Shown here: positions 152-21,051 of the stretch, one piece after another
Layout: each line of letters starts with the position of its first letter
Position numbering within the stretch: the stretch's first letter is position 1
Origin: Marispirochaeta sp.
GTDB lineage: Bacteria > Spirochaetota > Spirochaetia > JC444 > Marispirochaetaceae
Direction: 5' to 3'
Length of the DNA: 64,000 bases
NCBI GenBank assembly: GCA_963676835.2
Contig: CAXXFF010000003.1
Location: 672,001-736,000, forward strand
Made by a program: the position numbers and the translations under genes
Notes under the pieces: model-generated
Databases searched by the model: none
The model's input: the letters and a program-made list of their open reading frames with translations, nothing else
Told to the model about the DNA's origin: nothing

Positions 152-174
152 GTAACCGTCAATTAAACCCCACC
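152..174 (+). repeat. IS66 left terminal inverted repeat
   Basis: GTAACCGTCAATTAAACCCCACC. Confidence 0.93.
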
Positions 175-226
175 TTATGCCGACATCAATGAATGCCCTA
201 CAATCCTCCCTTAATGGAGGAATCGC

Positions 227-556
227 ATGGTCAAATATAACCGGGAACAGCAGTGTGAACATCTTAGAAATTGGGAAAAAAGCGGGTTAAGCGGGCAGGA
301 GTATTGCCGGCAGCACGAAATACCACCCACAACGTTTTACAGCTGGAAAAAAGCCGAAAGGAAACGTGCCGTACAAACCGGAATAGGCTCTGAAACAGCA
401 GCAGCCCGGTTCATACCAGTAAAAAGCTCTTTTCATCATTTATCCGAAAAAGAAACCATAACCATAAAGTTGCACGATATTGTTATTACTCTGCCGGTAA
501 CAGCAAATCATGACCAGCTAAAAGCAGTATTAACAGCCTTGAGGGTTTATGAATGA
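227..556 (+). CDS. tnpA: IS66 accessory protein TnpA (HTH)
   Basis: WEKSGLSGQEYCRQHEIPPTTFYSWKK HTH; GGAGG RBS; first ORF inside the IRs. Confidence 0.88.
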   Translation: MVKYNREQQCEHLRNWEKSGLSGQEYCRQHEIPPTTFYSWKKAERKRAVQTGIGSETAAARFIPVKSSFHHLSEKETITIKLHDIVITLPVTANHDQLKAVLTALRVYE

Positions 557-900
557 CCCCAGATTTATCAGCCGTACAGATATTTATCCGGCCAGGCATC
601 ACTGATATGCGTAAAGCAATCAACGGCTTAGTTGTCATGGTGCAGGACTATATGAATGAAAATCCGTTAAGCGGCAATCTGTTTCTGTTCTGCAACCGCG
701 AACGACGAATCATGAAGGCATTGTATTGGGACCGGAATGGTTTCTGCCTGTGGCAGAAGAAACTGGAAAAGCATAAATTCCCCTGGCCCGTAACTGAAGA
801 AGATGCTCTTGCCATTACCCCGGAACAGCTATCGATGCTGTTGAAAGGCATCGATTTCTGGAATGAACATACTACTTTGGAATATTCCCGTGTTTCTTAA
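553..900 (+). CDS. tnpB: IS66 accessory protein TnpB
   Basis: TDMRKAINGL...LFLFCNRERRIMKALYWDRNGFCLWQKKLEKHKFPWP motifs; ATGA overlap with tnpA. Confidence 0.95.
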   Translation: MTPDLSAVQIFIRPGITDMRKAINGLVVMVQDYMNENPLSGNLFLFCNRERRIMKALYWDRNGFCLWQKKLEKHKFPWPVTEEDALAITPEQLSMLLKGIDFWNEHTTLEYSRVS

Positions 901-962
901 AGCATTTTAATGGTGTAAAGGAATTTACAGAGAAAGAGCTGTATGCTAGAATTTTTTTCAGT

Positions 963-2492: not shown

Positions 2493-2504
2493 TTTTTTTC
2501 TCTG

Positions 2505-2527
2505 GGTGAGGTTTAATTGACGGTTAC
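2505..2527 (-). repeat. IS66 right terminal inverted repeat
   Basis: Reverse complement GTAACCGTCAATTAAACCTCACC. Confidence 0.93.
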
Positions 2528-2679
2528 GTATCAAAGCCTACAAGGCGGTTTTCCTCATCCCAGGTGTAGGTTCTGCAATAGGTGCTTGCCTGGTCGTCCT
2601 CTTCCGTACGCATAAGGGCAAAACCGCGGTTTACGCTGCGAAGGTCTCCGATTATTGATAGTTTAAATACTTTGTTCAT
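2528..2679 (-). pseudogene. 5' part of orphan rhs cassette (MNKVFKLSII fused to Rhs-core homology), truncated by IS66
   Basis: 2528..2650 matches 5793..5915 (2 substitutions in 123 bp); in-frame ATG at 2679. Confidence 0.85.
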
Positions 2680-2763: not shown

Positions 2764-3687
2764 CTATGGCCGATCACCCATTGGTATTACTAAATTCAAA
2801 CAAGTATCTTCCCATTTTGAACCAGGATAAACATCAAGGATGGTAAAACGAATTATTGTTTCACCGTCATCTATTTTCTTCGGCAAACGTATCTCCTGAA
2901 ACTGCGGTGTATTAGTTAGCTCTACTTCGAATTCAATATCATGTTCTTCGATTTCAATCCGCATTTTTTTTATTCGAGAGTTATATTCATATAAATAAGG
3001 TTTTGCAAAATCCACATACCCATTAGAAATCAGCAGAAAATCAACCGGCCAGTTCCACGTCTCGGTTTCAATTTCGAACCATTCGCCAATACCCTGCCCG
3101 TCAATACCTTCTACCCAGGGGATGTTATCGGTTGAAGAAAATTGAACGGTATTTTGACCATTGTATTCTTTAATACCTTCAACAAAGGATGAACTACTAC
3201 GAACTGAAACAACCCTTGGGTTTGCTCCACTCCATCTCAATCCCTCATCAGAACTAAACAAGAGATAGTTTTCATCAAAAAGAAGCAGTTTACGAGGATG
3301 CACAAGCATTCCCAGTTTTTCTTTGTAAGTGTAATTATTATTGCTTCGTAGGTATAAGTAATCAAAGTTATTTTCTTTTTTTGATTGCCAGGTACCATGT
3401 TCATAGTATTCACTCCCTACTGTAAGTCCACTATCTTTCAATGGATCAGGATACACAAAGAAAGCTGACGGGATGCGCTTCTCAGATAAACCTATCATAT
3501 ACTCGTAAAACTTTATATCAAACAAAAAGTCTCCAATAAAATTGGATGTTCCACCTCCATCAAGAAGAACTCGATCAAATGCGCCAAAAAAACTAATACG
3601 TTTCTCTAATCTTACAGGCTCTATATTGTTTTCTGCGACGAGACTAATTGATAGAGATAGCAAAAAAACAAATAAAATTTTTTTCAT
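2764..3687 (-). CDS. Exported protein with C-terminal NADase-type glycan-binding (discoidin-like) domain; candidate immunity protein 2
   Basis: Signal peptide MKKILFVFLLSLSISLVA; PWVEGIDGQGIGE...NGYVD...DVYPGSKWEDT; low GC; position after toxin. Confidence 0.7.
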   Translation of the reverse strand: MKKILFVFLLSLSISLVAENNIEPVRLEKRISFFGAFDRVLLDGGGTSNFIGDFLFDIKFYEYMIGLSEKRIPSAFFVYPDPLKDSGLTVGSEYYEHGTWQSKKENNFDYLYLRSNNNYTYKEKLGMLVHPRKLLLFDENYLLFSSDEGLRWSGANPRVVSVRSSSSFVEGIKEYNGQNTVQFSSTDNIPWVEGIDGQGIGEWFEIETETWNWPVDFLLISNGYVDFAKPYLYEYNSRIKKMRIEIEEHDIEFEVELTNTPQFQEIRLPKKIDDGETIIRFTILDVYPGSKWEDTCLNLVIPMGDRP

Positions 3688-3720
3688 TCCATTACCGGCC
3701 CCATCACTTTACAGGAATAA

Positions 3721-4635
3721 TTATTCTCTTTGCGAAAATATACTGGTCAGTCTATTGTATTCATCAGCACCCAACTCATGGTGCTCCTTCAAAGACTGAT
3801 CGTCAAGTTCAGAAAAAATACCAGACACCGCTGTATCGTTATATTTATATCCCGGATAAACTTCTATAATTTTTATTTTTATCTTTTTTACTTCCCGCGG
3901 AAAGTATACTGTATGAAATCTTACTTCATCAATAAAACGATATTCTATAGAAAAATTATCATAGTCATCATTCGAAATGATTTTGATTGTTTTTAGTCTA
4001 TTATTTGCTTTGTACAACGCTCGATTTGATAAATCTATATAACCATTCATAATGGAAATATTTTGATATGATTCATTAAATTCAACGTCAATCTCCTCAC
4101 CAATTCCTGGTCCTTCAACACCTTCAACCCAAGGGTAGGTTGATGAGAATGTTCCCCAAAACGGTTTAGAATTGATATTCCAGAATTCTCCATGATAGCC
4201 CATATCAATAACTACGTGTTTTAAATTTTCACTTTTGTATTGAATTAGATTCCCGTTAATCACTTCTTGAAAAAAACTTGTTGCGGTTATATCGCTTATA
4301 ATCGGTTTTACATTTGTATCTACAATAAGTACATCTTTATAGCCCCTGGGCTTCTCGAGATTATTAAAAAGAACGCTTGATCTATCTCCAAGAATAACGA
4401 TATATGTTCTATCCGAAGTTTTTAGATAACCGTAACCATCTTCTTCATAGCTAATATCTTCTTCATTGAAAGAATAGAAGCAATTACAAGCAGAATCAAA
4501 GATATAGCCTTTCCCTGAATAAAAAGCTATTTTTTTGTCAGGGTTAATCTGATCGATAAAGTTATATTCAAATGGTGTTGAGAAAAGATCTGTAATAACT
4601 ATAAACAATATTAAAATATAAGTATTTCTTGGCAC
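3721..4635 (-). CDS. Exported protein with C-terminal NADase-type glycan-binding (discoidin-like) domain; candidate cognate immunity protein
   Basis: GTG start 1 nt after the toxin stop, AGGAG RBS inside the toxin 3' end; hydrophobic N-terminus; PWVEGVEGPGIGE...NGYID...EVYPGYKYNDT. Confidence 0.72.
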   Translation of the reverse strand: MPRNTYILILFIVITDLFSTPFEYNFIDQINPDKKIAFYSGKGYIFDSACNCFYSFNEEDISYEEDGYGYLKTSDRTYIVILGDRSSVLFNNLEKPRGYKDVLIVDTNVKPIISDITATSFFQEVINGNLIQYKSENLKHVVIDMGYHGEFWNINSKPFWGTFSSTYPWVEGVEGPGIGEEIDVEFNESYQNISIMNGYIDLSNRALYKANNRLKTIKIISNDDYDNFSIEYRFIDEVRFHTVYFPREVKKIKIKIIEVYPGYKYNDTAVSGIFSELDDQSLKEHHELGADEYNRLTSIFSQRE

Positions 4636-4636
4636 T

Positions 4637-7600
4637 TCAAAACTCCTTTAACAGACCATTTATTATTGTCCCTTCTTGTATCCCCCAAGATTCCATAAAA
4701 TCAATTGAATCGTTGAATTCAGACGATGATGGGATAAAACAGCCATCACTACCTTTATTGTTGTAATCAACTTCTGGATTACCAAGACTCGCATTTCCAT
4801 GATAAAGCCAGCGCCCACCTCTATTTGCACCTCCTCCAACGGCATTCCCGTCACGTCCAATAACTGTGCCATCTATGGTTGATGTATTTTGAATCTCCAG
4901 AACAACTCCAGGAATGGATCCACTTGTTGATTTATACTCCATATCAAATTTACCTGGAGCAATAGTATTACCCTGTAACTGTGAGCCAGATATAGGCTGG
5001 TCTCGATTGCCTTCAGTTTGAATATCTACTGTCTGTAACCCTCCAACAAAATGCTTGCCCTTTTCTCCAAGAATAGTCTCTGCTGAAATGACCAGAAAAT
5101 CTTTCCCTTGGGTATCCAACTCACCATATTTACTTTCATAACTCGATCTACTTCGAAATACCTCTGCAGTGAACTTTGTAGGTTCATATTGTCGGTCGGT
5201 AATAATTTCACCCGTTTTAACATGCTCACCGATAACATCTGCCAACCCCGTAGGATCCACATACTTCAAAGGATTATTACTACAATACCCATACCAGTTC
5301 ATCCCATCCATCGCCGGATCACTCGACATCCATCTCCCCCGCTTCGGATCAAGGTACCTCGCTCCGTAATAATACAGCCCCGTCTCCTCATCATACTCCT
5401 TTCCGGTAAACCGGAACGGAATCACATCCGCTAACGGATCAATCTGTTCCTCCCACAGCTCTCCATAAGGAGTATACTCCAGGTGTTCATATTTCTCACC
5501 TTCATGGTCCGTGACAAACTGGGCACTGCCTAAATGATCAGGGTGGTAATAGTAGGTATTTACCCGCTCATAATCGAAGTTGGTACCGGAAATATTATCC
5601 TTCTCCAGGCTCAACCGCGTGGCAATTCTGCTTTCCCCCAGATAAATATGCTTACTCTGCCGGAAATCTGACCCTTCGGTTACCCCCTGAAAAAACTGGT
5701 CAAAGTACAGGGTTTCCTCGCTGGCACTAAGGTTATATTTGCTGGTACGCATATTATCTGCGTCATACAGATATTTTACCTGGGTGTTGGTGGTATCAAA
5801 GCCTACAAGGCGGTTTTCCTCATCCCAGGTGTAGGTTCTGCAGTAGGTGCTTGCCTGGTCGTCCTCTTCCGTACGCATAAGGGCAAAACCGCGGTTTACG
5901 CTTCGAAGGTCTCCGTCGACGGACAGAGTGGACTCCCCAGCCTCAGCCTCGGCGGAAGGCCCGCCTTTCCGTTCTTCTATAACATTGCCGTTTTTATCGT
6001 AGGAGTAATAAATATTGCCTATCCACTGTACCCGGTGAGGTGTTCCCTCATAGTAGCTGTACTCCTGCTCATAATTGAGGGCACCCTTGGGGGTGGTTGA
6101 AGGAACATAACGCTGGCTGGAGTTTTTCTGCTGAAAGTTCCCCAGGCTGTCATAGACATAGTCCTGACTATAGATACTGGTAGTTACATCAATGCCGTCC
6201 GGATGGTGCCGGTAGGTGCCATCCGCTCCGGTCAGCTGGTTTAAGGCATCGTAACCATAGGTCTGGGTTGTGGTGTAGCCGTACACATCGTTGGTATACC
6301 CGGTTATGTTACCCACCGTATCAAAACTGTAGCTAATGTTCTGGTAGCGCCGGGCTGCCCCTTCCTTCCCGGTTTCTATGCTGTCCAGCCAGCGGCGGTA
6401 GGGGTTGTAGGTGTAATGTGTTTCAACGCTGTTGCCGTACTTCATGTACACCCTCTGGCCGTAGGTGTCGTAGCCGATGTCTTCTATATAGGTAGTAGAC
6501 TGCCCCTTGGTGATTCCGGTGACACTCTGCACCTGACCACCGGTGTTGTAGGTATAGGCAACTGTTTCCCCGTCGGGATAGGTAATCTCTTCCAGCCGGC
6601 CCAGGTAGTCGTATACAAACGAGGTACTGGCCGTTTCCGCATCAAGGGTCTGATCCAGACGATTCAGGGTTCTGATGGTTTCACTTACTTCGCCGAGCTT
6701 TCCGTAGGCATATTCGATGGTCCCCGAAGCATCGCTGCGAGTTATAAGTCTACCCGCAAGGTTATCGGCAGTGTCTACCGGGCTACCGTAGGCGTATTCC
6801 GTTGCGGTTGTTTTCGGGTAATTGACTCTAATTAAGCGGTTCAGTCCATCGTAGTCGTACCGGATGGATCTGCCGGAAGCGCGGAGATTTGAATCGATTT
6901 TTTCCGTCAGGTTGCCTGAATCATCATACCTGAACACAATTTTACCTGCATCATAACTTTCTACACTTGTTCTGCGGCCTGCCAGATCGTACTGGTAAGT
7001 CACAGGGTATGTTAAACCTGTTTCCAGCTGGTGTTCAAGGCTCTGCTGCAGCTCACCCAGGGGTGAGTAGCTGTATTCCGCTTTTTTCAATATTCTGCTG
7101 CCGGAATCGAGCATACGAAGTTCCGCAACCTGCCCCCGGATGTTTTTCAGGGTTTCCGTTCTGTTCTGCTTCGGATCGATGGTCAGTTCCCGCATCGTAT
7201 TACCTTCAATGCCATATTCCATCTGCATTTCTGCATCGTCATCGGGATCTTTAGGATCATCGGGGAATACAATATGCTTTACCCTGTCCAGGGGGTCGTA
7301 GGTTTTTATGGTAGGAAGAGACAAGCCCGCCAGGGCCGGCAGAACCGTGTTAAGCCCGCCGGAGACAGGCTGGCTGTCTGCTGTTTCCAAAAACACCGTC
7401 TGTCCTTCCTGGACAGTCCGGCCTGCACCGTCCTGTGCAATCAGCCCGGAACAGTTCCAGCCGTAGAGAGTATCATTTCCATCCCTCACCTCACCCTCTT
7501 TGGCTGTCTGAATAATCCGGCCCAGTCCGTCCGCAAAGGTAGCGGTGAGCATATCCTCACTGGAGGCAGTATCGTGGCTGATTTTGTTTACCGTTACTGC

Positions 7601-10600
7601 AGTCCATGGGAAACTCTCCGTTCGGTACTGAAAGGCAACAGCAGGCATGTCGCCGCTGTCCGGTTCATAGGGGCTTCTTACCCGGGCCATACGGCCGAAG
7701 CTGTCATACTCCCGGTACTGGCTGTTCAGGTTCTGGTCGGTAAGCTGCAGTTCTTTGCCGTATTTATAGTCCCACTGCATGCTGGTGGAATAGCTTGGCG
7801 TACCGGAAATAATAGAGTTGCCCGTACCAATAGTAAGCGGGAATGTATGCACACTGCTGTCGTAAACAACAGCAGTTTCACAACCCCGGGGATCAATAAC
7901 GGAAGTCAGGTTGCCAAACCCGTCATACGCAAGGGTATGCAGGGTATAGTCATCCCTGGTGTAGTACTGTTCAAGCTGCCTGAGGTTTCCGGTATCAGCG
8001 AAATACCGCCCTATGCGCTTGCGCAGGAGATTATCTTCGGCATCATACACAAGAATGGTTTCCGGGTGGGCATGCATATAGGCGTCTGCATCGAGATCGG
8101 CATAGGTAATTTCTGCCCGCATGTCATCCTCGGGGTCGCCCACAAGGCCTGCATCGGTAAGCTCCCGGACATTACCGTAGGAATCATACAGAGTATATTC
8201 CATCAGCTTATCCAGCCTGGCGCCGGTTTCCTGGTCGAAAACGGTTTCCGTTTCACTCTCCAGCCGGGGAATAACGCTGCCGGAGGCAAAGGGAATATAG
8301 CTGTAGGTCATGGAGCTTTCACTGTATTCCTGTGCCGCCGGATCGAGAGGATGCACGTCGTAGACGGCCCGTTTGATCAGCAGCCCCCGGCGGAAAAAGT
8401 TATCGTCATAGGCAGGATCAACCGCATAGGTGTCCTCCTGTACCGAAGCAATGGCGGTGTTTGCAGGAACCTCGGAATCGTAGTTTTCATAGCGCAGGGT
8501 TCTGACGGTGGTAAAGCCGCAGAACATCCGTTCCGTTCTATCGTATACACCCTGTTCAAACTCAAAACCCGTAACAAACTCATGGGCTCCGGGACGTTCA
8601 GTATCGCCTTCAATGCCGTCCTTCATGGTGATTGTTTCAGGGACCCATCTGCTCTGGGGCATTTCCACGGTGTTACCCACTCGTTTGTAGCTCAGCTCGG
8701 TGCTGCCGCCGAAGGGGGTATGGATGGTTTTCAGCAGGCCAACCGTGCCGAGGGCGGATTCCATTACCCGGATTCTGTTTTCTCCAGGTACCCGTAAAAC
8801 ATGGTCGGGAAGCCCGTCGCCGGTAATATCCTGAAACTTTAAACTTGTAGATGTATGTACATACGAACCACTTATTCCCGGAGTCATTTCAAACAGGATT
8901 AACCACAACACAGGGATTTGAAATGTTACCGTACCGTTTACCCCGAGGGAAAGACCGGCGGAATATTCCAGCGTATCATCAACATTAAAGGGATTCAAAC
9001 CGGCACCAAACTTATCTATAAAATCAAGTCCCCCAAGATCTATAGAGAAATCAGGAAGAGCTGATATATCGATGCCTGTAAAATTTCTTACCGCGGAAGT
9101 TATTTCATTACAAATTGATGCGGTCATCATTCCTGCAAAATTTATACCAGACCAATCGGGCCTATAAATTTTAACCGGTTCTTCCGCGAAAGTATCGCCT
9201 AAATTGAAGCAGACCTCAAAGAATCCTTCATCAGGCATTTTTGCCACCTGGTCAGGTAAGCCGTCTCCATTCATGTCCAGCATACGATAAATAGTTCGAT
9301 TCACAGAACCAGTTTCACTCCCGCTTGCGCCGAAACCGATAGCACCGGCAGTTACGCCGGTTGATACCGATCCACCGAAACTACCTGCATTGCTGTATTC
9401 AATTCCTTCTGACTCTTGCTGGCTTTCGAATATTTCGGGCAACAAAACTTTATATAGCCCCCCATTCCATTGAGTTTGTGGATCGAAACCGTTTCCGGTA
9501 TTCAGGGCAACTGAAGAGGACCCGCTGCCAGTACGCTCCAACTGGTCCGGCAAACCATCTCCATTGATATCCCTGAAACCGATGTTCTGGATATTAGACG
9601 AGGTAGTGCCGTTTATGCTTACACTTGCACCGGAAGAACCATCCGTAGCAGTTATCTGGTTGGATTCAACCTTTCCATCCTTATAAGTCTGCATAATCCC
9701 GCCAATAACCGCCATGGGGGAAGAACCGAAGCCGTAACATTCATTGCTGCTTTTTGTCATATAATTGAGTCTGGCTGACAACCCCGTTTCGTTCTGCAGT
9801 GTAAACGTATTATCTGATGCTATGCTTCCATACTGCACCGTAACAGAAGTACCGCCATCTGAAGGGAACTGGACTACATCCGGATACCGATCGCCGTTGA
9901 TATCTATAAAATCCTTGTACATCCATGAATTACCGGTATTCCTGCTTCCACCGATAAGATTCATAAACGCGCTGAGATTGATATCAACGTTGTCATTCTT
10001 GCTTTTTCTCAAATCGCCCAGCTGTCCCTGACCACATAATGTAGAGCTTGTAGGTGCTGAATAATAGAGGTCACCACCTAAACGTGCCGGGTGATACCTG
10101 TCTTCCTGCAAATAGGGAGCAAACGTATATTCATTAAATACCATTGTGCCTGTTTCATCCCATTCAGCTTCAGAATAGGAAGAATTGCTGCCAATCCAGG
10201 CGTTTTCAGGTACAAGTTCCTTGTATACGCGCCCGTCCTCAGTAATTTTATAGGAATCATCCTCCTCGCTATAGTTAGGTGACATCGCTAAAAACCAGGG
10301 TGGATCAACAGGATCACTGCTCTGCAATACCTCAAGGGAAGGAACCTCTCCGTTGCCCTCTTCATATTCGGGTACTTCTACAAGCTTCTCGGCATCCCAG
10401 TCGTAATACCCGGTCCAGACTCCGTAAAACCAGCCATGAACTCCACCGGCAAAAGATTCTCGGCTGTAAGATTTTTTGGACAGATTATTAAGATAATCAC
10501 CCTCCGATGAAGAAGGCAGGCTTTCAGGAAATTTTGCAAGGATAAGATTATCCAGAGCGGAATAATCGATAAGGTTTAGATCCGAGTAATCGGAGAGAGA

Positions 10601-13600
10601 ATCAGCCTGACGGAAAAGAACTTTTTTATTTATCGATATACCTTCACTGTCAAATACCGGCAAGCGGCAGCTGCCTGCAGAAACATCTGTAACAGTTGTA
10701 TCCGAATTTTCCGGTGAGAAACTCGTTAGCGCTGTTTCACTCACCAATCCTTCGTCGGTGACTTCAAAATCACCATTGGCATTATAGATAATTCCCCTCT
10801 CAAGCTCAGTCCAGGTCCGGATGCCAAGATCCGATAAAGATGAAATAACAACTGCAGTATCCTCAGGCTTATCAAGAATGTCCTTTATCACATAGTTACT
10901 GTCGTCATCAGAGTAGAATGGAAAAACCTCATCCATCGCACGGTAACGGCCGCATGCTAAAGTGAATAATGCCGTTTGATCAACGTTAAAATTTTGCTGC
11001 AGTGAATACCAGTTATTTAAATCTGAATCTAAGTACTCTACAAATAATTCAGTAATATCATTACGTATCCCTGCATCCTGAGAAGCCAGGAAAATTGCAA
11101 ATTCATCTTCACTTAACAGAATAATTCCCTGTATGCCGGGGTCAATAGTATCAAGGATTGAATCCGGAATATCATGAAGAGCATCAGTTTGCTGTAGATA
11201 TATAAGCAGGCCGCTTTCAAACCCCGGGCCTTTCGGCATATAAGTATCCAAAAACTCATCATATTCAAAAGAATCTGTCATAGAGAGAAGATCAGCCTCG
11301 CTTAGCCCAGAAGAGGCTGCCAGCCAGTCAGTGCTGCTTACGGGAAAAAGAGAGGAAACCCCATACTGCTCCCCGGAAATTACAGAAGGGATAACAGTCT
11401 CTTCGAACAACGCCTCCGGTATCGATTGAAGCAAGGAAGTCTCACCTTCCAAATTAAAAAATCGCGTAATACCATCTTCAACAACTTCACAATGAAACCC
11501 ATCACCTGTTTCGGAGACTGTTCCGGCAGGTGTTGTACCTGATTCATCATGCTTAAGAATTTGTGGTTCTGCTCCTGCATTTAAAATGTATGAATAGGAT
11601 GGATTTTGAGTATCTTCCTCCAGAAAAACCTGGTCCAGTAGAAAACTACCATTTTCAATTAACACCTTTTCACTGCCATTCCAGTCAGCCTCAAGTCGAA
11701 TTTCCGGAGAAAGATCCTCGTCAGTAACCGTAGCAGTAAGCAGACGAAACTCACCGGTAGAATCCGGATAGCCCTGAGGCAAATCTTCTGCATCCGGGTA
11801 CACCAGCGATCGTAAGGCATCCATACCGATAAGTGATCGCCACGGATCATCATATTTACGAATAACTGCAAGTCCGGCTGAATCTGTACAATAATAGACC
11901 TTCTCTTCCGGAGAATAGGTAAAAGAATAAAAAAGTGTATAACGATCAGACGCAGAAATCTGGTGAGTAAAGCCAACGGGAGTAATATTGTAGTCAGGTG
12001 AGACTAAATTAAGCAGAGGTTCAAACATGACTGCAGGAACTCTGGTAAAGTTAAGGTAACAATTTCTTATTAACACATCCTGCAGAGTGGGATTGGCTTC
12101 TACAAGTGCTTTCCAGTTAGAACGACGGTTATAAACCCTGACATTCTGCTCATCGATTTGTTCAAAGGTGGAGGTGTAGAGGGGATCAAATCCCGAATCA
12201 CCATCAGGTAGGCTTCTGTAAGTCTTTAATGGAATGTCCACAAACGTGCTGAGGTCCTCCATTGATTCCAGCAATTTGATAGAGGAGTAGTGAATAGTGG
12301 AGTTCCATAAAACATCATCTCCTCTCGGATCTCCTTTTGTATCAAGATGAAAATATATTGGCTCTCCTTTATTAATATGAACATTTTCAATCTCCAGAGG
12401 GTTTGTACTTACTCCACCTGGCAAAATATCACTGGCAGCTTCTATCCCTCCCGGCGCCCGCACTACAGCAACAGCATCACAATAACTGCTGAACCCGGTT
12501 TCCACAGGAGTAAATGAATTGGACACATTAACGGTTCCGGACCTGTAGGCCTTCCATTTTCTGACTGGCTCCTGAATAAAATAGCCTTTCTCCAGGCTGG
12601 CGCCTTGCTTGCTCGAAACCTCGGCTATTTCACTGCTGTCAGAAGGAGTTTCGATTATCTTTGAAATAAATCCTTTACCCTCATTATTCAGATAATATCC
12701 GTCAAAATCGGTGGCTGCAAAATCTACAAAACCATCTCCATTCAGATCAGAAAAACTGCTTCTTGTTTTTGATTGCCCCCACTGCCAGGTAGTCGATCCG
12801 CTTAAAGGAATAACTCCAGCGGAAAGTCCGAAATTGTATGATGAAGATCGGACCTCATTAACATTTCGCGACAGAGAACCAAAATCTATAGCCTTAGCTC
12901 CAGTGTTGAAAACACCTTCATCCTGAGGGAAACACACCGCATCCTTTCCTCTGGACAATACGACATCTGACAAACCATCTCCGGTTAAGTCCATAAGTGA
13001 CAACTCAGTTCTGGCTTTGGAAGTATTTGCATCGGCACGTAATCCAAAATGGGCATACCGTTCCCACTTAAGGCCGCCAAAGAAATCAATTTTGGGCCCA
13101 TACAGACCAATCCCCGTGTACAGGCTTACACCTACTCCGGAAGTCCGGTCTTCCTGCAGAGCTGGCACTTTGGCAGGATCTTCAAGCACAATGGACCGCT
13201 CCCCTTCCCCGAAACCTTTATACCCGTCACCCTGAACCTCCGGCTCATAGTAATCAAAGCGGTAGCAGTAAAACTCACTGCCGGAGCCGTCGCTTTCGGA
13301 AAGCTCCGCCAACTGGGTCTGGCCGAAAATATTCTGTCCATAGGTAAAATCATAACGCCGGAACATGAGACCGTCATAAGAAACCTCAACACCTTGTAAC
13401 AGGCGGGTCAGCTTGGAGACAAACTTGCCCCGGGCATCGCTGCGACGGTCCGGCCTGGCTTCGGGAGAAGAGTCCATGTCAAAATGAATACGGTAGAGCC
13501 CGGTCGAGCCGTCTCCGGTATGGCCGGAATAACGGATATCGGAAAGATACGCTGTCTTGTTTGCAAGGTCTTTATCGTAGGAATAATCCGCCGTATTACC

Positions 13601-14707
13601 GTTGGAATCAATAATCCTGCTCAAATACCAGTGGTAGATTCTGCTGCGGTCACCCGCATCCGGACCCGTCCAGCCGTCGCCGGTGCCGTAGATACGCTTC
13701 GTTCCGCCCTTGTCGGTAACCTCCCAGCGGCGGTCATCATTCACATACCAGAGTATCCGCTCAAAGCTCCCCTCTTTCCGCCGGATGTACTTCATGGCAC
13801 CGTCTTCCATTTCGCCGCTGAAGAGCAGCTCCTCTCCGTTCAACAGAAAAGTATCTTCCGTATCGTAATCGGGAAGGCCGAAACGGGTATCGATGGAAAC
13901 CGACGGTACACTTATGTCAAAGCCCCGGCCCATCCAGCTGTTCTGCTGTTCCGATGAGTAGGAAACAGACAGCTGAGGCGTTGCGGAACCCCGCCCTTTG
14001 GGAATGCGTAAAGGCAGTGAAAAGCCTGCGCCCCCCATGGTGTCCGCCTTAAGGCCCTGCACCCGGGGAACCTCCGCCGTTGGGTCGGCTGCTTTGAGGT
14101 CTTTTATACTGTTGACATTAAACTCCACCGCCTGAGGCCCTTCCGGCAAAGTCAGGGTGGAGGTAATCATATCGGTAAAATGGGTGGTAAGGCTGGTAAT
14201 AACTGCGGCATCATGGTCGATACCGTAACGTTCAAGCTTGTTCCATTTTCCCGGAGCCTCATCATAATACCAAGTGTAAAGATTGGAGAGAGCTGTTTCC
14301 GAAGCAAGTATCTGCCTGTCGAAGGGAAGGGAGACTTTAACCGCCCGGGAAAAGGTCTGTCCGTCGGGGAGAAAACGGTATCCTGCCGCCCCGGAGGTTA
14401 CATTGGCCATACCGCTGTTAAGCCGGGCAATATTGCTAAGCTTTTCTACGGTAATGACGGTAGTTTTGCTTACTGCCCCGGAGGGGACCTCCATGGAGAC
14501 CTCGGGCGAGCGGAACACTCCTCCTTCCCCGGGAGTAACGGTAAACTCGGCAATAACCTCATTGCCCGGTTCCTCACTCACCTGTACCGCCGGCGTGGTT
14601 GGAGAGAGAGAAACCTCTCCGGGTTGGGCGAAAACAGGGGGAGCAACGGAGCTCAAAAAGAACAGCTCCAGAAGGAAAAAGCTTATTAGCCGGTTTCTTA
14701 TATTCAT
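4637..14707 (-). CDS. Giant Rhs/YD-repeat polymorphic toxin: signal peptide, ZU5-like domain, SpvB/TcB-like N-terminal domain, six FG-GAP-like repeats, YD repeats, Rhs-associated core, C-terminal toxin domain
   Basis: 3356 aa; GGAGFSLPLRIPKGRGSATPQLSVSYSS...WMGRGFDI (SpvB); D[LIM][TN]GD[GR]xxD repeats; YYHPDHLGS, RFTGKEYDEETGLYYYGARYLDP, PLKYVDPTGL. Confidence 0.93.
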   Translation of the reverse strand: MNIRNRLISFFLLELFFLSSVAPPVFAQPGEVSLSPTTPAVQVSEEPGNEVIAEFTVTPGEGGVFRSPEVSMEVPSGAVSKTTVITVEKLSNIARLNSGMANVTSGAAGYRFLPDGQTFSRAVKVSLPFDRQILASETALSNLYTWYYDEAPGKWNKLERYGIDHDAAVITSLTTHFTDMITSTLTLPEGPQAVEFNVNSIKDLKAADPTAEVPRVQGLKADTMGGAGFSLPLRIPKGRGSATPQLSVSYSSEQQNSWMGRGFDISVPSVSIDTRFGLPDYDTEDTFLLNGEELLFSGEMEDGAMKYIRRKEGSFERILWYVNDDRRWEVTDKGGTKRIYGTGDGWTGPDAGDRSRIYHWYLSRIIDSNGNTADYSYDKDLANKTAYLSDIRYSGHTGDGSTGLYRIHFDMDSSPEARPDRRSDARGKFVSKLTRLLQGVEVSYDGLMFRRYDFTYGQNIFGQTQLAELSESDGSGSEFYCYRFDYYEPEVQGDGYKGFGEGERSIVLEDPAKVPALQEDRTSGVGVSLYTGIGLYGPKIDFFGGLKWERYAHFGLRADANTSKARTELSLMDLTGDGLSDVVLSRGKDAVCFPQDEGVFNTGAKAIDFGSLSRNVNEVRSSSYNFGLSAGVIPLSGSTTWQWGQSKTRSSFSDLNGDGFVDFAATDFDGYYLNNEGKGFISKIIETPSDSSEIAEVSSKQGASLEKGYFIQEPVRKWKAYRSGTVNVSNSFTPVETGFSSYCDAVAVVRAPGGIEAASDILPGGVSTNPLEIENVHINKGEPIYFHLDTKGDPRGDDVLWNSTIHYSSIKLLESMEDLSTFVDIPLKTYRSLPDGDSGFDPLYTSTFEQIDEQNVRVYNRRSNWKALVEANPTLQDVLIRNCYLNFTRVPAVMFEPLLNLVSPDYNITPVGFTHQISASDRYTLFYSFTYSPEEKVYYCTDSAGLAVIRKYDDPWRSLIGMDALRSLVYPDAEDLPQGYPDSTGEFRLLTATVTDEDLSPEIRLEADWNGSEKVLIENGSFLLDQVFLEEDTQNPSYSYILNAGAEPQILKHDESGTTPAGTVSETGDGFHCEVVEDGITRFFNLEGETSLLQSIPEALFEETVIPSVISGEQYGVSSLFPVSSTDWLAASSGLSEADLLSMTDSFEYDEFLDTYMPKGPGFESGLLIYLQQTDALHDIPDSILDTIDPGIQGIILLSEDEFAIFLASQDAGIRNDITELFVEYLDSDLNNWYSLQQNFNVDQTALFTLACGRYRAMDEVFPFYSDDDSNYVIKDILDKPEDTAVVISSLSDLGIRTWTELERGIIYNANGDFEVTDEGLVSETALTSFSPENSDTTVTDVSAGSCRLPVFDSEGISINKKVLFRQADSLSDYSDLNLIDYSALDNLILAKFPESLPSSSEGDYLNNLSKKSYSRESFAGGVHGWFYGVWTGYYDWDAEKLVEVPEYEEGNGEVPSLEVLQSSDPVDPPWFLAMSPNYSEEDDSYKITEDGRVYKELVPENAWIGSNSSYSEAEWDETGTMVFNEYTFAPYLQEDRYHPARLGGDLYYSAPTSSTLCGQGQLGDLRKSKNDNVDINLSAFMNLIGGSRNTGNSWMYKDFIDINGDRYPDVVQFPSDGGTSVTVQYGSIASDNTFTLQNETGLSARLNYMTKSSNECYGFGSSPMAVIGGIMQTYKDGKVESNQITATDGSSGASVSINGTTSSNIQNIGFRDINGDGLPDQLERTGSGSSSVALNTGNGFDPQTQWNGGLYKVLLPEIFESQQESEGIEYSNAGSFGGSVSTGVTAGAIGFGASGSETGSVNRTIYRMLDMNGDGLPDQVAKMPDEGFFEVCFNLGDTFAEEPVKIYRPDWSGINFAGMMTASICNEITSAVRNFTGIDISALPDFSIDLGGLDFIDKFGAGLNPFNVDDTLEYSAGLSLGVNGTVTFQIPVLWLILFEMTPGISGSYVHTSTSLKFQDITGDGLPDHVLRVPGENRIRVMESALGTVGLLKTIHTPFGGSTELSYKRVGNTVEMPQSRWVPETITMKDGIEGDTERPGAHEFVTGFEFEQGVYDRTERMFCGFTTVRTLRYENYDSEVPANTAIASVQEDTYAVDPAYDDNFFRRGLLIKRAVYDVHPLDPAAQEYSESSMTYSYIPFASGSVIPRLESETETVFDQETGARLDKLMEYTLYDSYGNVRELTDAGLVGDPEDDMRAEITYADLDADAYMHAHPETILVYDAEDNLLRKRIGRYFADTGNLRQLEQYYTRDDYTLHTLAYDGFGNLTSVIDPRGCETAVVYDSSVHTFPLTIGTGNSIISGTPSYSTSMQWDYKYGKELQLTDQNLNSQYREYDSFGRMARVRSPYEPDSGDMPAVAFQYRTESFPWTAVTVNKISHDTASSEDMLTATFADGLGRIIQTAKEGEVRDGNDTLYGWNCSGLIAQDGAGRTVQEGQTVFLETADSQPVSGGLNTVLPALAGLSLPTIKTYDPLDRVKHIVFPDDPKDPDDDAEMQMEYGIEGNTMRELTIDPKQNRTETLKNIRGQVAELRMLDSGSRILKKAEYSYSPLGELQQSLEHQLETGLTYPVTYQYDLAGRRTSVESYDAGKIVFRYDDSGNLTEKIDSNLRASGRSIRYDYDGLNRLIRVNYPKTTATEYAYGSPVDTADNLAGRLITRSDASGTIEYAYGKLGEVSETIRTLNRLDQTLDAETASTSFVYDYLGRLEEITYPDGETVAYTYNTGGQVQSVTGITKGQSTTYIEDIGYDTYGQRVYMKYGNSVETHYTYNPYRRWLDSIETGKEGAARRYQNISYSFDTVGNITGYTNDVYGYTTTQTYGYDALNQLTGADGTYRHHPDGIDVTTSIYSQDYVYDSLGNFQQKNSSQRYVPSTTPKGALNYEQEYSYYEGTPHRVQWIGNIYYSYDKNGNVIEERKGGPSAEAEAGESTLSVDGDLRSVNRGFALMRTEEDDQASTYCRTYTWDEENRLVGFDTTNTQVKYLYDADNMRTSKYNLSASEETLYFDQFFQGVTEGSDFRQSKHIYLGESRIATRLSLEKDNISGTNFDYERVNTYYYHPDHLGSAQFVTDHEGEKYEHLEYTPYGELWEEQIDPLADVIPFRFTGKEYDEETGLYYYGARYLDPKRGRWMSSDPAMDGMNWYGYCSNNPLKYVDPTGLADVIGEHVKTGEIITDRQYEPTKFTAEVFRSRSSYESKYGELDTQGKDFLVISAETILGEKGKHFVGGLQTVDIQTEGNRDQPISGSQLQGNTIAPGKFDMEYKSTSGSIPGVVLEIQNTSTIDGTVIGRDGNAVGGGANRGGRWLYHGNASLGNPEVDYNNKGSDGCFIPSSSEFNDSIDFMESWGIQEGTIINGLLKEF

Positions 14708-14756
14708 GTACTACTCCAGTTTTTAATTCACATTTTTTATCAGTTTACGTTTGTCG

Positions 14757-15428
14757 CTATAATTCGGTAAAAATCACATGCACCGATTCCTGAGGGAAAC
14801 TGTCTTCAGGAGAGATAACCACCAGATACCCGTTAGCCCCGCTCTGGTGCAGAGGCGGTTCCTCATCGAGAAATGTTGTTTCCAGCACATCGTTCAGATA
14901 GAGCTGATAGTTGCTTTCGCTGTTATCCCAGACAACCCGGATGCGGTTGCCTTTGTTGTAACCGTCAAGCAGGTTGTCCGAATCGGTCCAGGGAAAAAAC
15001 GGAAAGAATTCATCATCGACAACTTCTCCCACAATGTATTCAGCCGATGCATTTATCAGAACCACCAGCATGGTTTCCCCTGTATCCGGGTCGCCTGAGT
15101 CATAGTGGCAGAGAACAATTCCGTATCCTGCGACATCAGACCCGGAAACCTTATTACACTTTACTTCCCGTTCTGAAAAAGGATCTGCACTAGTACCGTT
15201 TAAAGCCCACAGGGTGTACCCCAGGGGGCTCCACCAGGCGGTATCGTTGGTAAGAAAAACAACTTCCCCCGGCCCACCGCCGTCAACAAAAAGCTCCCCC
15301 ACCTCTGCGATATCTTCACCGCCGGTACCGGAAGATGTGGCAGGTGTCGGGGTTACCGGACACCCGGTCAAAAGAACTGATAGAATAACCAGACCGAGGC
15401 AGAGACATCCTTCAATACGATTCTTCAT
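14757..15428 (-). CDS. Lipoprotein, possibly a concanavalin-A-like beta-sandwich
   Basis: Lipobox LLTGC; beta-rich GYGIVL...GNRIRVV...YQLYLND pattern; starts 1 nt after the upstream stop. Confidence 0.6.
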   Translation of the reverse strand: MKNRIEGCLCLGLVILSVLLTGCPVTPTPATSSGTGGEDIAEVGELFVDGGGPGEVVFLTNDTAWWSPLGYTLWALNGTSADPFSEREVKCNKVSGSDVAGYGIVLCHYDSGDPDTGETMLVVLINASAEYIVGEVVDDEFFPFFPWTDSDNLLDGYNKGNRIRVVWDNSESNYQLYLNDVLETTFLDEEPPLHQSGANGYLVVISPEDSFPQESVHVIFTEL

Positions 15429-15429
15429 A

Positions 15430-16251
15430 TCAGCCGTCCGAATGGGGAATGGGCGAATCGCTCACAAATACCAGGGTGTATTCGATAACCGTTCCACCGG
15501 CTAACGGAGATTCATCTATGCAGACATCGGGATCGGGAAAAATCTTGAAGCGGAAAGCTGCCTCGGCAAACTGCTCATTATCGATGCAAAAAGCCTGGTC
15601 GCTGGTTATCTGCTCCGAAGCCCCTGCACCTTCCCGGAGATACCGGAGACAGGAACCATCCACTCCTATGGCGGGACTCTGCTGAACAACCTTCAATGTA
15701 AGGCGGTGTCCCGGATCGATGACAACATAAAACCAGTCATCATCCTGTATCCAGCGCATTCCCCCGCTCTGCTGATAGTAGTAGCTATTGCAGCTTAAGC
15801 TCACCTCGTTGCAGGGAAAATAGAAGGCAGAATCTTTGGTGTCGTTCGACTCATGGAGATCCTTGATACACTCATTGCCGATTCCCAGGGCGGGTTCCGA
15901 CGGGCCGAACTCGCTGTTTCCCTTAAGCTTGGCAAGGGTATACAGGTAGCGTTTTTCATCTTCAACGGCAGTATCGTTGTAGCTCCTTCCTGTGCCCTGG
16001 TATACTGTTGAATAGACCGGAACAACGTCGGTATCCTCCGCCCGGCGGAGGATGTACTCGTCAGCAGCTTCATCATCATCCCAGGAAACCTGAACAGAAA
16101 GTTCCTGCTCAAAGGAGATCGCATATGGCGGAGAAATTTCCGGATCCCGGGCAAGCCGGTTCATGGCGTCCATAAGGTCACCGTCGCAGCCGTAGATAAT
16201 TATGCAGAGAACCGTCAGCAAAGTAAGCCGGGAAAGAAATACCTTGTACAT
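15430..16251 (-). CDS. Lipoprotein with FN3-like domain and possible Ca-binding beta-sandwich
   Basis: Lipobox IIYGC; VQVSW...YILRR...YNDTAV...YLYTL FN3 pattern; DLHESND and DDDWF motifs; AGGAG RBS. Confidence 0.62.
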   Translation of the reverse strand: MYKVFLSRLTLLTVLCIIIYGCDGDLMDAMNRLARDPEISPPYAISFEQELSVQVSWDDDEAADEYILRRAEDTDVVPVYSTVYQGTGRSYNDTAVEDEKRYLYTLAKLKGNSEFGPSEPALGIGNECIKDLHESNDTKDSAFYFPCNEVSLSCNSYYYQQSGGMRWIQDDDWFYVVIDPGHRLTLKVVQQSPAIGVDGSCLRYLREGAGASEQITSDQAFCIDNEQFAEAAFRFKIFPDPDVCIDESPLAGGTVIEYTLVFVSDSPIPHSDG

Positions 16252-16317
16252 TTTTGCTCCTGTTTTTTTGTTTTCTTTTTTCTATTCATCTCTTCATTTC
16301 TACTTTTACCAGATTCT

Positions 16318-17361
16318 TTATTGCTTCAATTGGCCGATGCGGTAGTGCCCGGACAAGCCCAGAACAAGGGCAGCCTGCACGGGAGAGTAGAACGCAAACT
16401 CCAGAGCAGACCGGACTCCGATAGTCCAGGAATCAGTCAGCCCGTAGCGGTAGCCAAGCTGCAGAAAACAGCCCGCTGCGGTGTTGAAGGTGGAGTAGGC
16501 ACCGTAATAGAGCCGGTCCTGAAAGAGCAGATCGAACTGCATGCTCAGCCCGCCGCCAAGGTCTATAAACTGATTCTCCGCCAGCCCGGCACTCATGGTA
16601 AGGGGAAGATTCAGCCTGAAGCTGTGCAGAATAAAGCTCTCGTAATCCGCATCATTGACCGCAAGCGAATAGGCCAGGGTTAAGCCTGTCTGAAACTCCC
16701 AGGGAACATCCCCCCGCATAAACAGGGGCTGCACCGGGGTAAGCAGAAGACCTGACTCAAGCCGCGCTATCCCGGTGGATGTTTCCCCCCAGTCCCCTCC
16801 CGCGGGGGTCCAGTAATTTAAGTACAGAGGCAGAACGAAGATATTCTTCTCAGGAGCCGGCATGGGATCATAGGCACTCATGCCCAGGTCGGTATACAGA
16901 TAATCCAGGATTTTCCTCGTCAGCTCCTGCACCAACCGGTCATAATGATCCGCCGTATCCCGGGCAAGAAACAGTATCTCGATCTTCCGTGTTTCATGGT
17001 TATACATTCTCAGTTCGCAATCCCAGCCTATTTCCGTTCGGGTAAAAAAGCCGAAGAGCAGATAGGTAATGCCCCGGTCAGCACATAAGCGGGCAGCCTC
17101 CAGGTATCCTTCCGGAGAGTCCGCCCCTTGAGAGAGAGATTGAATCTGAGCAATGCCCTCATGATCTGTAATCTTAATGCTTTTCAGCAGATCGCCTGTA
17201 AAATCTCCACTGTCTATTTTTTCAACCCGATCCTCTGTCAGATTTCGGATGGATACCGGCGCCAGATAGATATCCAGAGCATGAAGTTGTAACAAGGAAC
17301 AAAGCAGAAATAATAGGCATAGAATTAAACGCCTGAGAGATGCTCTTGTATAATCAGCCAT
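16318..17361 (-). CDS. Exported two-domain protein with a probable C-terminal outer-membrane beta-barrel
   Basis: Signal peptide ending LHA; alpha/beta N-domain; alternating amphipathic strands in the C-half (LQLGYRYGL, LGLSGHYRIG); 8-bp overlap with the TPR gene. Confidence 0.55.
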   Translation of the reverse strand: MADYTRASLRRLILCLLFLLCSLLQLHALDIYLAPVSIRNLTEDRVEKIDSGDFTGDLLKSIKITDHEGIAQIQSLSQGADSPEGYLEAARLCADRGITYLLFGFFTRTEIGWDCELRMYNHETRKIEILFLARDTADHYDRLVQELTRKILDYLYTDLGMSAYDPMPAPEKNIFVLPLYLNYWTPAGGDWGETSTGIARLESGLLLTPVQPLFMRGDVPWEFQTGLTLAYSLAVNDADYESFILHSFRLNLPLTMSAGLAENQFIDLGGGLSMQFDLLFQDRLYYGAYSTFNTAAGCFLQLGYRYGLTDSWTIGVRSALEFAFYSPVQAALVLGLSGHYRIGQLKQ

Positions 17362-18733
17362 GTACAGCAGCTCCAGTTAATTGAAGTAGTTCCTGCGCCT
17401 GCACAAGCTCACTGCTGTCTGATTCTGCAGAGGAATCAATAATGCCCGAAAGAATAGTCCGGGCCTCACTGTTTTTTCCCCCGTCCAGAAGCAGCCGGCA
17501 TTTTATGAGCAGCAGGGCATTGCTCCGGTAATACCCGAGACCGGTGTTCACATACCTCCAGGCATCTTCGGATGTTCCATTTGTATAATTGATTTCGGCT
17601 ATGAAGCAGCAGCAGTCGGCCGCTTTTTCCAAGTCTTCCCGGGTCTGCAGGCTCAGTGATTCAAGAGACTTTTCTCTGGTATGAACCGCCTGCTTAAACT
17701 TATATTGGCAGAGGTAGCAATCAGACAAAAGCTTGAGAACTTCATAAGATCCTTGCAGAGACTTACGGGTAAGAATACCTTCAGCGTCGGCATAGTTCTC
17801 AAGCAGAATTGCCGTACGGGCTGCACCTATCAGAGATGGTCGATGTTCAGGATTAATTTCCATACTTCGGGAAAACAGTTCAAAAGCCTCGAGGTGATCT
17901 TCCCTCTGCTCCTTCAACAGAGCCGCATAATAAATATAGAGAAAGTTCTCAGGGTCCTTTCTTCGAAGCAGAACCATCTCATACTCTGCCCGCGGAAGAT
18001 CTCCCATCTGCACACAGACTGTCACCAGCTTATCCAGGTATTCAGTACTGTCCGGGTCCAGGTCCCTCAGGCGGTGGTAATAGCGGTAAGCTGATTCCCA
18101 CTCCTGCTGTTCCACAGAAACCTCCGCAAGTACTTTTAAAGCAAGATGATTTGCCGGATCAGCAGCCAGCACTGCCCCCATGGAAGCTGCCACCCGTTTG
18201 TAATTTGTCGAATCCATGGGATTTGCATAAAACAGTGCCGCATTGAAATAGAGCTGTGCCGGTATTGATTCGGGAGCAATGGCAAGAACATCCGACATGG
18301 TAGATGCACAGAGAATAAACTCTTTCTCTTTAAACAGAAGGATTCCGTCATCAACCATGGTTTGCAGGAATGCTGTACCAGCAGGCGAAACACCAGATGA
18401 TTCGCGCACAGCCATGGCAAGAGCTCGCTGATCCTGACGGAGGGCATAGATACTGGAATTCATCTGCCGTTCCAGCAGACTCACCTTATTTTTGAGCTGG
18501 AACTGGGCTGTTTTTATCTCGACAAAATAATCCAGGTTTTGAGAAAAACCGGAATTAAGACTGGAAAGCAGCCGGTCGGTATTCTCTGCACTCAGTTCCA
18601 GGATTGCCTGCTGCTGCTCGTTCTGTGTCTGCAGAAAACAGAGCAGTGACTCATTTATCTCGGAGGTCCTATGCAGAATCAGGCCATAGGAGGTGATGAT
18701 TGTAGTTAAAATTAGAGCAGACAGCTTCTTCAT
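17354..18733 (-). CDS. Tetratricopeptide-repeat protein with N-terminal membrane anchor/signal and coiled coil
   Basis: Hydrophobic N-terminus, Q/E-rich coiled coil, TPR helices (AYRYYHRLRDLDP, AFELFSRSMEINP). Confidence 0.75.
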   Translation of the reverse strand: MKKLSALILTTIITSYGLILHRTSEINESLLCFLQTQNEQQQAILELSAENTDRLLSSLNSGFSQNLDYFVEIKTAQFQLKNKVSLLERQMNSSIYALRQDQRALAMAVRESSGVSPAGTAFLQTMVDDGILLFKEKEFILCASTMSDVLAIAPESIPAQLYFNAALFYANPMDSTNYKRVAASMGAVLAADPANHLALKVLAEVSVEQQEWESAYRYYHRLRDLDPDSTEYLDKLVTVCVQMGDLPRAEYEMVLLRRKDPENFLYIYYAALLKEQREDHLEAFELFSRSMEINPEHRPSLIGAARTAILLENYADAEGILTRKSLQGSYEVLKLLSDCYLCQYKFKQAVHTREKSLESLSLQTREDLEKAADCCCFIAEINYTNGTSEDAWRYVNTGLGYYRSNALLLIKCRLLLDGGKNSEARTILSGIIDSSAESDSSELVQAQELLQLTGAAVHG

Positions 18734-20803: not shown

Positions 20804-21051
20804 AGGATGTTTCCCCCTCTGCTTTAAGTATATAAAGCCCACAACGAAGTGCAACATTTTGCCCGGTAATTAAAGGAGAACTTACACTGAGTTAGATTTT
20901 AAATACCCCGGGGCTTGAAGGAGAAATGGAATCTCCCTCGTGTATACATTCTCCCCCTCTCCGTTTAGTATAAGCCCTGCTCCTGTACAACCCGCTGTAA
21001 ACAAAGGCAAACAGGACAATCACCCGACAGAATCCTTCAGAAAAGGCGTAT

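Follow-up and report, generated by a model that had tools for sequence, protein, structure and literature searches.

A conserved barrel-lipoprotein module precedes TcdB/TcaC-class Rhs toxins in Spirochaetia and is linked to type II secretion genes

A toxin of a known class behind a conserved envelope module

In a 64,000-nucleotide stretch of Marispirochaeta sp. DNA (assembly GCA_963676835.2, contig CAXXFF010000003.1, positions 672,001 to 736,000; hereafter the window), the segment 2764..18733 encodes a 3356-aa Rhs toxin preceded by four genes for envelope proteins (ccTPR, barrel, lipo1 and lipo2, together called the module) and followed by two immunity-type genes. We find that this segment belongs to a real, conserved family of loci: the toxin class is already known, and the variant with the module and its gene linkage to a type II secretion system (T2SS) appears new. 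The module is likely coupled to the toxin, the locus is very likely a polymorphic antibacterial one, and gene linkage in relatives makes an exit of the toxin through a secretin probable. The genome of the window, 97% complete, is designated G000; the other G numbers and the L numbers are labels of genomes and loci compared.

The association was tested in both directions. One motif of the toxin N-terminal part, scanned against GTDB genomes, gave 47 Rhs loci, almost all in records titled Treponema, Spirochaetaceae, Spirochaetia or Breznakiella, of which 9 were dropped for having less than 3.5 kb upstream. Barrel, lipo1 and lipo2 lie directly upstream of the Rhs gene in 32 of the remaining 38 loci, and ccTPR is also present in 30 of the 38, right before the barrel (in many relatives as its first ~210 aa only). 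Conversely, a lipo1 profile run on 371 genomes of the class found 40 full-length places, own included, 32 of them new; six of these were dropped (less than 2.4 kb downstream; one shows other genes behind a stop-bearing lipo1). An Rhs gene was found downstream of lipo1 in 23/26 new loci and in 7/7 earlier ones, i.e. 30/33. The neighbourhood search suggested by an initial annotation of this DNA therefore came out in its favour, the upstream genes preceding SpvB-Rhs genes with variable tips. Its view of the four genes as a dedicated module stands insofar as they are conserved and tied to Rhs; they are not a self-standing route, as the module mostly sits with T2SS genes.

The toxin is, by its domain sequence, a member of the TcdB/TcaC class of Zhang 2012. 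Pfam and NCBIfam domains found are SpvB (E 1.4e-23), FG-GAP, TcdB_midN, RHS repeats and the Rhs core TIGR03696, and the order reads signal peptide, ZU5-like domain, SpvB, FG-GAP propeller, RHS shell, and Rhs core ending in DPTG at 3154. As in that class, a signal-like N-terminus (hydropathy) precedes SpvB, the propeller and RHS repeats come with an Rhs core, and the variable C-terminal toxin is followed by immunity genes and cassettes. Among solved chains, the TcdB2-TccC3 fusion is the closest in sequence (E 1.9e-37), which together with the domain matches upholds the TcB-TcC-like architecture initially described. A hydrophobic N-terminus was present in 37/40 toxin homologues, versus 2/700 internal windows. 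Residues 30-196 gave no Pfam match; they contain THFT (residues 174-178), an instance of the HF[TS] motif found in 36/40 homologues and possibly a ZU5 cleavage site.

ORF calling recovered seven minus-strand open reading frames (ORFs) within 2764..18733, at the positions first reported, and the recomputed spacings (-8, 66, 1, 49, 1 and 33 nt) agree with the co-oriented, tightly packed genes claimed earlier. Export-type N-termini on all seven products had been claimed as well, and a simple hydropathy scan found a hydrophobic stretch in each. That of ccTPR is the weakest (1.92), and the N-termini of its homologues look like membrane anchors, not cleaved signals. A promoter and terminator scan stayed near the level of shuffled sequence (25 versus 26.4, and 23 versus 17.8), so that it is the spacing that argues for an operon. 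The features are as follows.

17354..18733, minus strand: ccTPR, 459 aa, N-terminal hydrophobic anchor, coiled-coil-like stretch and TPR repeats (Pfam TPR_19, E 7.7e-14)
16318..17361, minus strand: barrel, TolB-N/CsgG/PelC-like alpha/beta domain and 8-stranded OmpA/NspA-type barrel (model)
15430..16251, minus strand: lipo1, lipoprotein (Cys22), Fn3-like domain (PDB sequence match) and a second domain, weakly PPC-like
14757..15428, minus strand: lipo2, lipoprotein (Cys23), probable ConA/laminin-G-like sandwich (feature matches)
4637..14707, minus strand: Rhs toxin, 3356 aa (Pfam/NCBIfam domains)
4637..5245, minus strand: CT1, the toxin tip, 202 aa, predicted L,D-transpeptidase/carboxypeptidase (YkuD) fold (model)
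3721..4635, minus strand: imm1, candidate exported immunity protein, C-terminal F5/8-type (NADase_transloc) domain (PF25302, E 1.1e-18; NF047619)
2764..3687, minus strand: imm2, orphan immunity paralogue without a toxin of its own (PF25302, E 3.7e-20)
2527..2661, minus strand: start of an orphan Rhs cassette, cut by an insertion sequence (tblastn to toxin residues 2928-2972, 95.6% over 45 aa)
152..2527, plus strand: IS66 element inside the orphan cassette (Pfam IS66 families)
1..151, minus strand: continuation of the orphan cassette, the rest lying off the window at G000:C3:670021-672158

We also considered whether barrel homologues occur mostly without Rhs genes, and rejected it: among five genomes in which the barrel is not adjacent to SpvB, three (G032, G044 and G140) have a giant RHS gene downstream, and in the other two (G104 and G175) a contig end truncates the barrel locus or the sequence covered contains no RHS. 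Weak barrel matches in G015 and G205 and partial matches were set aside as short fragments. Pairs of lipo2 and Rhs without a barrel exist (L046, L047, L073); of the module genes, it is lipo2 that keeps closest to the toxin.

Related arrangements were observed at other loci. L048, L049, L116, L123 and L124, from two distant lineages, have a barrel, a large lipoprotein, a 1000-1200 aa protein, a giant non-SpvB RHS and an array of small exported genes, and the G044 barrel again terminates a T2SS cluster. G104 carries three barrel-lipo1 pairs (L029, L030, L031); of the three lipo1 genes, one codes for ten repeats spanning 2175+ aa, and behind another lies the gene of a 4691+ aa protein, without an RHS match in the stretch covered. 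In other spirochaete lineages (L050, L051, L052, L055) a long SpvB-Rhs gene follows a single ~490-aa lipoprotein-like gene that gave no match to the module profiles. Finally, two toxin-family loci, L084 and L089, come from records whose titles name Clostridia and Lachnospiraceae; as the GspF tree places L084 inside Treponema, these records may be misbinned.

Type II secretion genes next to the module

In relatives, genes follow each other in the order prepilin peptidase, secretin, GspE, F and G, pseudopilin-, K- and L-like genes, lp0 (a small lipoprotein), and ccTPR-barrel-lipo1-lipo2-Rhs; the T2SS genes were confirmed with Pfam for two loci. Of the module loci, 27 come with 10 kb of upstream sequence: 20 of these have co-oriented GspE/F/G genes, 4 a secretin only, 2 none, and 1 K/L-like genes, with its D-E-F-G genes further upstream, past a second Rhs array. 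In the class sample, a T2SS lies within 12 kb upstream of 7/15 loci (5 co-oriented and 2 head-to-head; one is in the same-genus G524), and one additional locus has it directly downstream. The linkage persists through several gene orders. Looking from the other side, 10 of 23 same-class gspG loci run into Rhs and at least 4 are cut by a contig end (two more genomes are without a listed position).

Only one secretin was found in G000. It lies in a D-E-F-G cluster on contig C1 (G000:C1:834791-844787), where the core families PF00263, PF00437, PF00482 and PF08334 all matched over cut-off; genes of fitting size and place for minor pseudopilins and GspC/L/M are present, with no Pfam match. The last gene of the cluster is lp0, which in relatives lies just ahead of ccTPR. 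T2SS and module are split likewise in the closest relative's genome, and in a quick tree the G000 GspF falls within the branch of all module-linked T2SSs (SH-aLRT 99). G403 combines both situations, with one full T2SS-module-Rhs operon and two detached module-Rhs copies resembling the window. More generally, GspG was found elsewhere in 5/5 tested genomes with a detached module. The earlier caveat that partners may be encoded elsewhere was well founded, given the T2SS on contig C1.

No gene of a type VI secretion system (T6SS) had been seen in the window, and this now extends to the whole 97% complete genome: VgrG, sheath and PAAR were unmatched while the controls responded, and the combination of PAAR or VgrG with a T6SS that marks T6SS Rhs effectors was not found in G000. 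The TcA profiles PF03538 and PF18276 gave no match in G000, but none in any control genome either.

A second T2SS type, on a separate GspF branch, was observed with lp0, a small lipoprotein, a clostripain-family gene (PF03415, tested on L121), and a ~1950-aa RHS gene with immunity genes (L120, L121, L122, L126-L128, L137, L138, L140, L141).

Models of the barrel and the lipoproteins

The barrel gave no match in Pfam or NCBIfam. Its model (pLDDT 87.7, 37 sequences) consists of a TolB-N/PelC-like domain and an 8-stranded barrel, in line with the earlier remark that it is too small to be the translocon. Structure matches are NspA (Z 18.9, rmsd 2.5, 151 aligned), Dot/Icm porin III (Z 17.7) and the TolB N-domain (Z 11.7). 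The lipoprotein Cys is invariant in both families (32 and 34 homologues). For lipo1, an Fn3-like PDB match was obtained (E 2e-4), and PPC was matched in 1/32 members (E 0.006). Feature matches in the Atlas, run on the homologue L088, relate lipo2 to the PF06439 and PF02210 clusters (0.95-0.96), from which a ConA/laminin-G-like sandwich is probable. PDB sequence searches gave nothing useful for lipo2 and barrel; a word-index protein search was weak for the barrel (1 match alone, 3 by alignment) and gave 38 matches for lipo2, the named ones spirochaetal.

In complex modelling, the barrel-lipo1 pair scored 0.74, the best of 3 controls 0.00; this mark is reached by 116/157 solved and 2/215 mismatched pairs, counts that are rough for our own alignments. 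At least 88% of the contacts agree between runs, with a partner pLDDT of at least 83. The modelled contacts place lipo1 residues 3-15, just past the lipid Cys, and 89-92 on four barrel loops opposite the N-domain. By standard barrel topology such loops face outward, and the lipidated end of lipo1 is predicted to dock on the outer loops of the barrel.

The toxin tip and its immunity genes

The CT1 model (pLDDT 90.4) has the fold of L,D-peptidases. The top 20 rows of the structure search (Z 6.2-10.8) include Csd6 (Z 10.8, rmsd 3.3, 126 aligned), Pgp2 (Z 10.8), Tlde1a (Z 6.9) and named L,D-transpeptidases, and the next row, unrelated, is at Z 3.6; Foldseek also returned Pgp2 (E 1.1e-4). The catalytic-type residues expected with a YkuD fold are found in the model and the alignment, as His3303 and Cys3323, in columns invariant among 34 aligned sequences. 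CT1 does not carry the Tlde1 motif HX14-17(S/T)HGCh, Asp replacing the second His, and PF10908, the Tlde1 family proper, gave no match among the 34 members; an Atlas feature similarity of 0.82 between CT1 and Tlde1 is a lead only. CT1 is a candidate L,D-peptidase-fold tip, with a predicted activity on peptidoglycan.

Tips of relatives vary (NlpC/P60, M91, Ntox21, DUF6973, and many without assignment). The CT1 profile or the His..GC motif is matched by each of the 7 tips that precede an F5/8 gene (3 are profile seeds, 4 are not); 35 other tips have other neighbour genes, and 2 of these 35 tips also bear a His..GC-type motif. Genes after tips have a hydrophobic N-terminus in 26/31 cases, versus 123/300 background ORFs. 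Based on this gene association, we propose the exported F5/8-domain (PF25302) proteins as a candidate immunity family for L,D-peptidase tips. Three lone exported F5/8-domain genes were also seen in G000 (C4:339949-340857, C2:1525827-1526654 and C2:1433626-1434360), with no Rhs match nearby; they are possibly stray immunity genes.

The segment 2764-3687 had been annotated as an orphan toxin cassette. We rejected this, as it carries PF25302 without a toxin of its own, and is a second immunity-type gene. The true orphan cassette of toxin and immunity gene begins at 2527-2661 with an Rhs fragment of 45 codons, is broken by the IS66 element and leaves the window at its left end; the off-window part (coordinates above) holds the Rhs core, a tip (CT2) and an immunity gene (imm3). 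CT2 is one of the seeds of the CT1 alignment and has its His/Cys columns. The products of imm2 and imm3 are 74.5% identical, with 41% identity over residues 21-100 and 91-92% over 101-307. As the divergence is concentrated in residues 21-100, the sequences point to the N-domain as the site of specificity of these immunity candidates.

The flanks of the IS66 element form a 46-bp direct repeat with one mismatch (window 106-151 and 2528-2573), far longer than the usual short target duplication, and about ten related IS66 copies exist in G000. GC content is 0.49-0.50 for toxin body and module (toxin body 0.486) and 0.32-0.40 for the tip and immunity genes (imm1 0.315). One DNA read run, possibly from the source sample, gave coverage in all 30 bins, with no joints. 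Beyond the orphan cassette lie an IS21-like transposase pair and a mazEF-like pair (G000:C3:666964-670017, translations judged by eye). At the other end, a co-oriented chemoreceptor gene (window 18788-20857) stops 54 nt short of ccTPR, a position that it does not occupy in the closest relative, L060.

Proposed mechanism and its alternatives

The scheme that we favour runs as follows. Sec would carry the toxin, the module proteins and the immunity proteins to the periplasm, as their signal-like N-termini suggest. By analogy with Tc and Rhs chemistry, whose motifs are present, the toxin would fold into a TcB-TcC-like shell, its core cleaving at DPTG and the tip staying caged. Gene linkage in relatives suggests that it would cross the outer membrane via the secretin of the contig C1 T2SS. 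The barrel would serve as a dock, with the lipidated end of lipo1 on its outer loops in the model, and lipo1 and lipo2 may tether or present the toxin, which is the weakest step; ccTPR would probably act as a chaperone or bridge anchored in the inner membrane. The tip would attack the peptidoglycan stems of neighbours as an L,D-carboxy- or transpeptidase, as the modelled fold with its His and Cys suggests, and the exported F5/8-domain proteins would neutralise it via their variable N-domain. Tips and immunity genes may be exchanged by recombination with the downstream cassettes. We hold this whole mechanism, with Sec, export by a secretin and surface tethering of an interbacterial polymorphic toxin, for somewhat better than an even bet; the tethering by barrel and lipoproteins, taken separately, is about even.

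Several observations weigh against it. A folded shell of ~370 kDa would be very large for a secretin. No T2SS gene lies within 12 kb of 8/15 class-sample loci, nor of the locus in the window. In genus g2, GspG was found in 0/9 genomes and GspE over cut-off in 0/5; four g2 genomes nevertheless have module and toxin intact, lipo1 and lipo2 being separated by a gene for a 400-aa secretin, so a full T2SS cannot be required everywhere; in a fifth genome, lipo2-Rhs pairs occur with no barrel. Purifying selection acts on the in-module secretin (dN/dS 0.09-0.14), a point in favour of the scheme. L093 (Treponema putidum) and L095 show the same secretin-inside order, and a GspG search of both genomes gave no match. 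The most constant partner is thus the secretin and not the T2SS as a whole. Five T2SSs of the same GspF branch have neither module nor Rhs alongside, so the T2SS is not exclusive to the toxin. Likewise, 6/38 close Rhs loci are without the module, and SpvB was matched in 112/401 genomes of the phylum while a full-length barrel was found in 14 (own included), so the module is not general to SpvB toxins. The loci are related, some being near-copies or profile seeds, and the figures are counts, not statistics; the Rhs scan was moreover based on a single motif taken from module-bearing loci. Finally, the modelled barrel-lipo1 interface is no more conserved than the remainder (p 0.33 and 0.47), though a few contact residues are nearly invariant.

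The 400-aa secretin within the module of genomes with no GspG match was seen at L023, L025, L026, L027, L093 and L095.

An alternative, unlikely but deserving attention, keeps the exit by the T2SS and makes the module a part of the machine (pilotin, scaffold and small barrels round the secretin, adapting it to giant cargo), the toxin being released and not tethered. The likeness of the barrel to Dot/Icm porin III and its TolB-N/PelC/FlgT-like domain, as in envelope rings, suit this idea, as do the barrel homologues ahead of unrelated giant RHS proteins in G032, G044 and G140 and the secretin inserted inside the module in L093 and L095. It fits poorly with the modelled lipo1 contact on loops opposite the periplasmic domain, with lipo1 domains in up to 10 repeats, as in a surface stalk, with the joint duplication of modules and toxins away from the T2SS, and with the same-branch T2SSs that have no module.

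It is rather improbable that the T2SS or secretin exports the lipoproteins only, the toxin using vesicles, lysis or unfolded passage. L092, where gspD-E-F-G runs directly into Rhs with no module between, and the second T2SS type, which in 7/19 loci leads to another RHS of ~1950 aa with neither barrel nor lipo1, both speak against this reading. The points in favour are the size of the shell, the fact that T2SSs export surface lipoproteins, and L164, where a barrel-lipo1 pair neighbours a T2SS and the 6 kb covered contain no Rhs.

We give little credence to the version of the initial annotation, in which the four genes alone form an export or display route independent of a T2SS. There is indeed no gsp gene near the window, about half of the class loci stand alone (8/15), and g2 lacks GspE and GspG; but an 8-stranded barrel cannot pass a folded shell, GspG is present elsewhere in the tested stand-alone cases (5/5), and the four full-module g2 genomes retain a conserved secretin inside the module. 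Last, a Tc-delivered, T6SS-delivered or host-directed toxin with unrelated neighbours is hardly credible: the TcB-TcC similarity speaks for it, and against it stand the unmatched VgrG, sheath and PAAR, the peptidoglycan-enzyme fold of the tip, the adjacent immunity-type genes and the conserved neighbours.

Export through a secretin followed by surface display may have a wider reach. We tentatively picture, as a possibility on the doubtful side, a dedicated contact-killing apparatus of many Spirochaetia, in which a T2SS lineage would export Rhs shells of 200-370 kDa and a small barrel would dock surface lipoproteins that display them; in one group of treponemes (the L093 arrangement, Treponema putidum) it would be reduced to secretin and module, exporting with neither ATPase nor pseudopilus.

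Significance and comparison with known systems

For the passage of signal-peptide Rhs toxins across the outer membrane of diderms without T6SS or TcA, this locus family supplies candidate parts that single deletions could put to the test. It hints at a function of the T2SS clusters of spirochaetes, and at a weapon that gut, oral and sediment spirochaetes may use against other bacteria. It further offers an F5/8 NADase_transloc candidate immunity family for L,D-peptidase toxins, a putative barrel-lipoprotein surface dock and a natural secretin-only variant; if true, export by secretin and module without ATPase or pseudopilus would be an undescribed secretion mode.

Searches of open-access full text, which leaves aside subscription papers and the supplements of PMC3482391 and of the bioRxiv paper below (these may list such neighbourhoods), turned up no description of the module or of a spirochaete T2SS-Rhs link. 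The initial annotation had not recognised the route as a named one; this holds for the module, while the architecture has the name TcdB/TcaC class, and a T2SS-Rhs link was proposed before. In the parts consulted, PMC6668835 lists T2SS in Spirochaetes, and PMC8049484 notes that T. pedis and T. denticola have RHS genes, and finds none of its treponemes to have a complete secretion system.

The TcdB/TcaC class is defined in PMC3482391 (Zhang et al. 2012), where spirochaetes stand in the phyletic list (Table 1) and "T2SS" is a label for the Sec pathway. Our locus shares with it the signal peptide, SpvB, propeller, RHS, the order of toxin and immunity genes, trailing orphan immunity and, possibly, the ZU5 association. 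In Table 1 and sections 8 and 41 of that paper TcdB is the sole neighbourhood signature, with no mention of a gsp operon, a barrel or a lipoprotein module. For gspG-linked Rhs proteins of Xanthomonas and Ralstonia, T2SS export was likewise predicted from gene linkage, and is functionally unconfirmed in the portion consulted (bioRxiv 10.1101/2025.05.08.652813); unlike these gspG-linked families, ours has whole D-E-F-G-K-L clusters or a lone secretin, a SpvB fusion and a barrel-lipoprotein module.

Shell-forming domains and a caged C-terminal cargo are common to our toxin and the Tc B-C shell (TcdB2-TccC3, YenB/YenC; PMC11067744, in the part consulted), but here they form one chain with a signal peptide, an antibacterial-type tip and immunity genes. 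The tip resembles Tlde1/Tldi1 of Salmonella, as described in the sections consulted of PMC9638812, in using an L,D-peptidase fold as cell-wall toxin, in its His and Cys motif and in having Csd6 as closest enzyme fold. Tlde1 is a T6SS cargo with an S/T-H-G-C motif, whereas CT1 is an Rhs tip with the motif H-X16-S-D-G-C-F and an adjacent F5/8-domain immunity candidate. Finally, Neisseria MafA-MafB, although its proteins are different and have no Rhs shell, is likewise a polymorphic toxin exported by Sec, for which an upstream gene was proposed to provide the surface anchor (PMC3482391, section 37).

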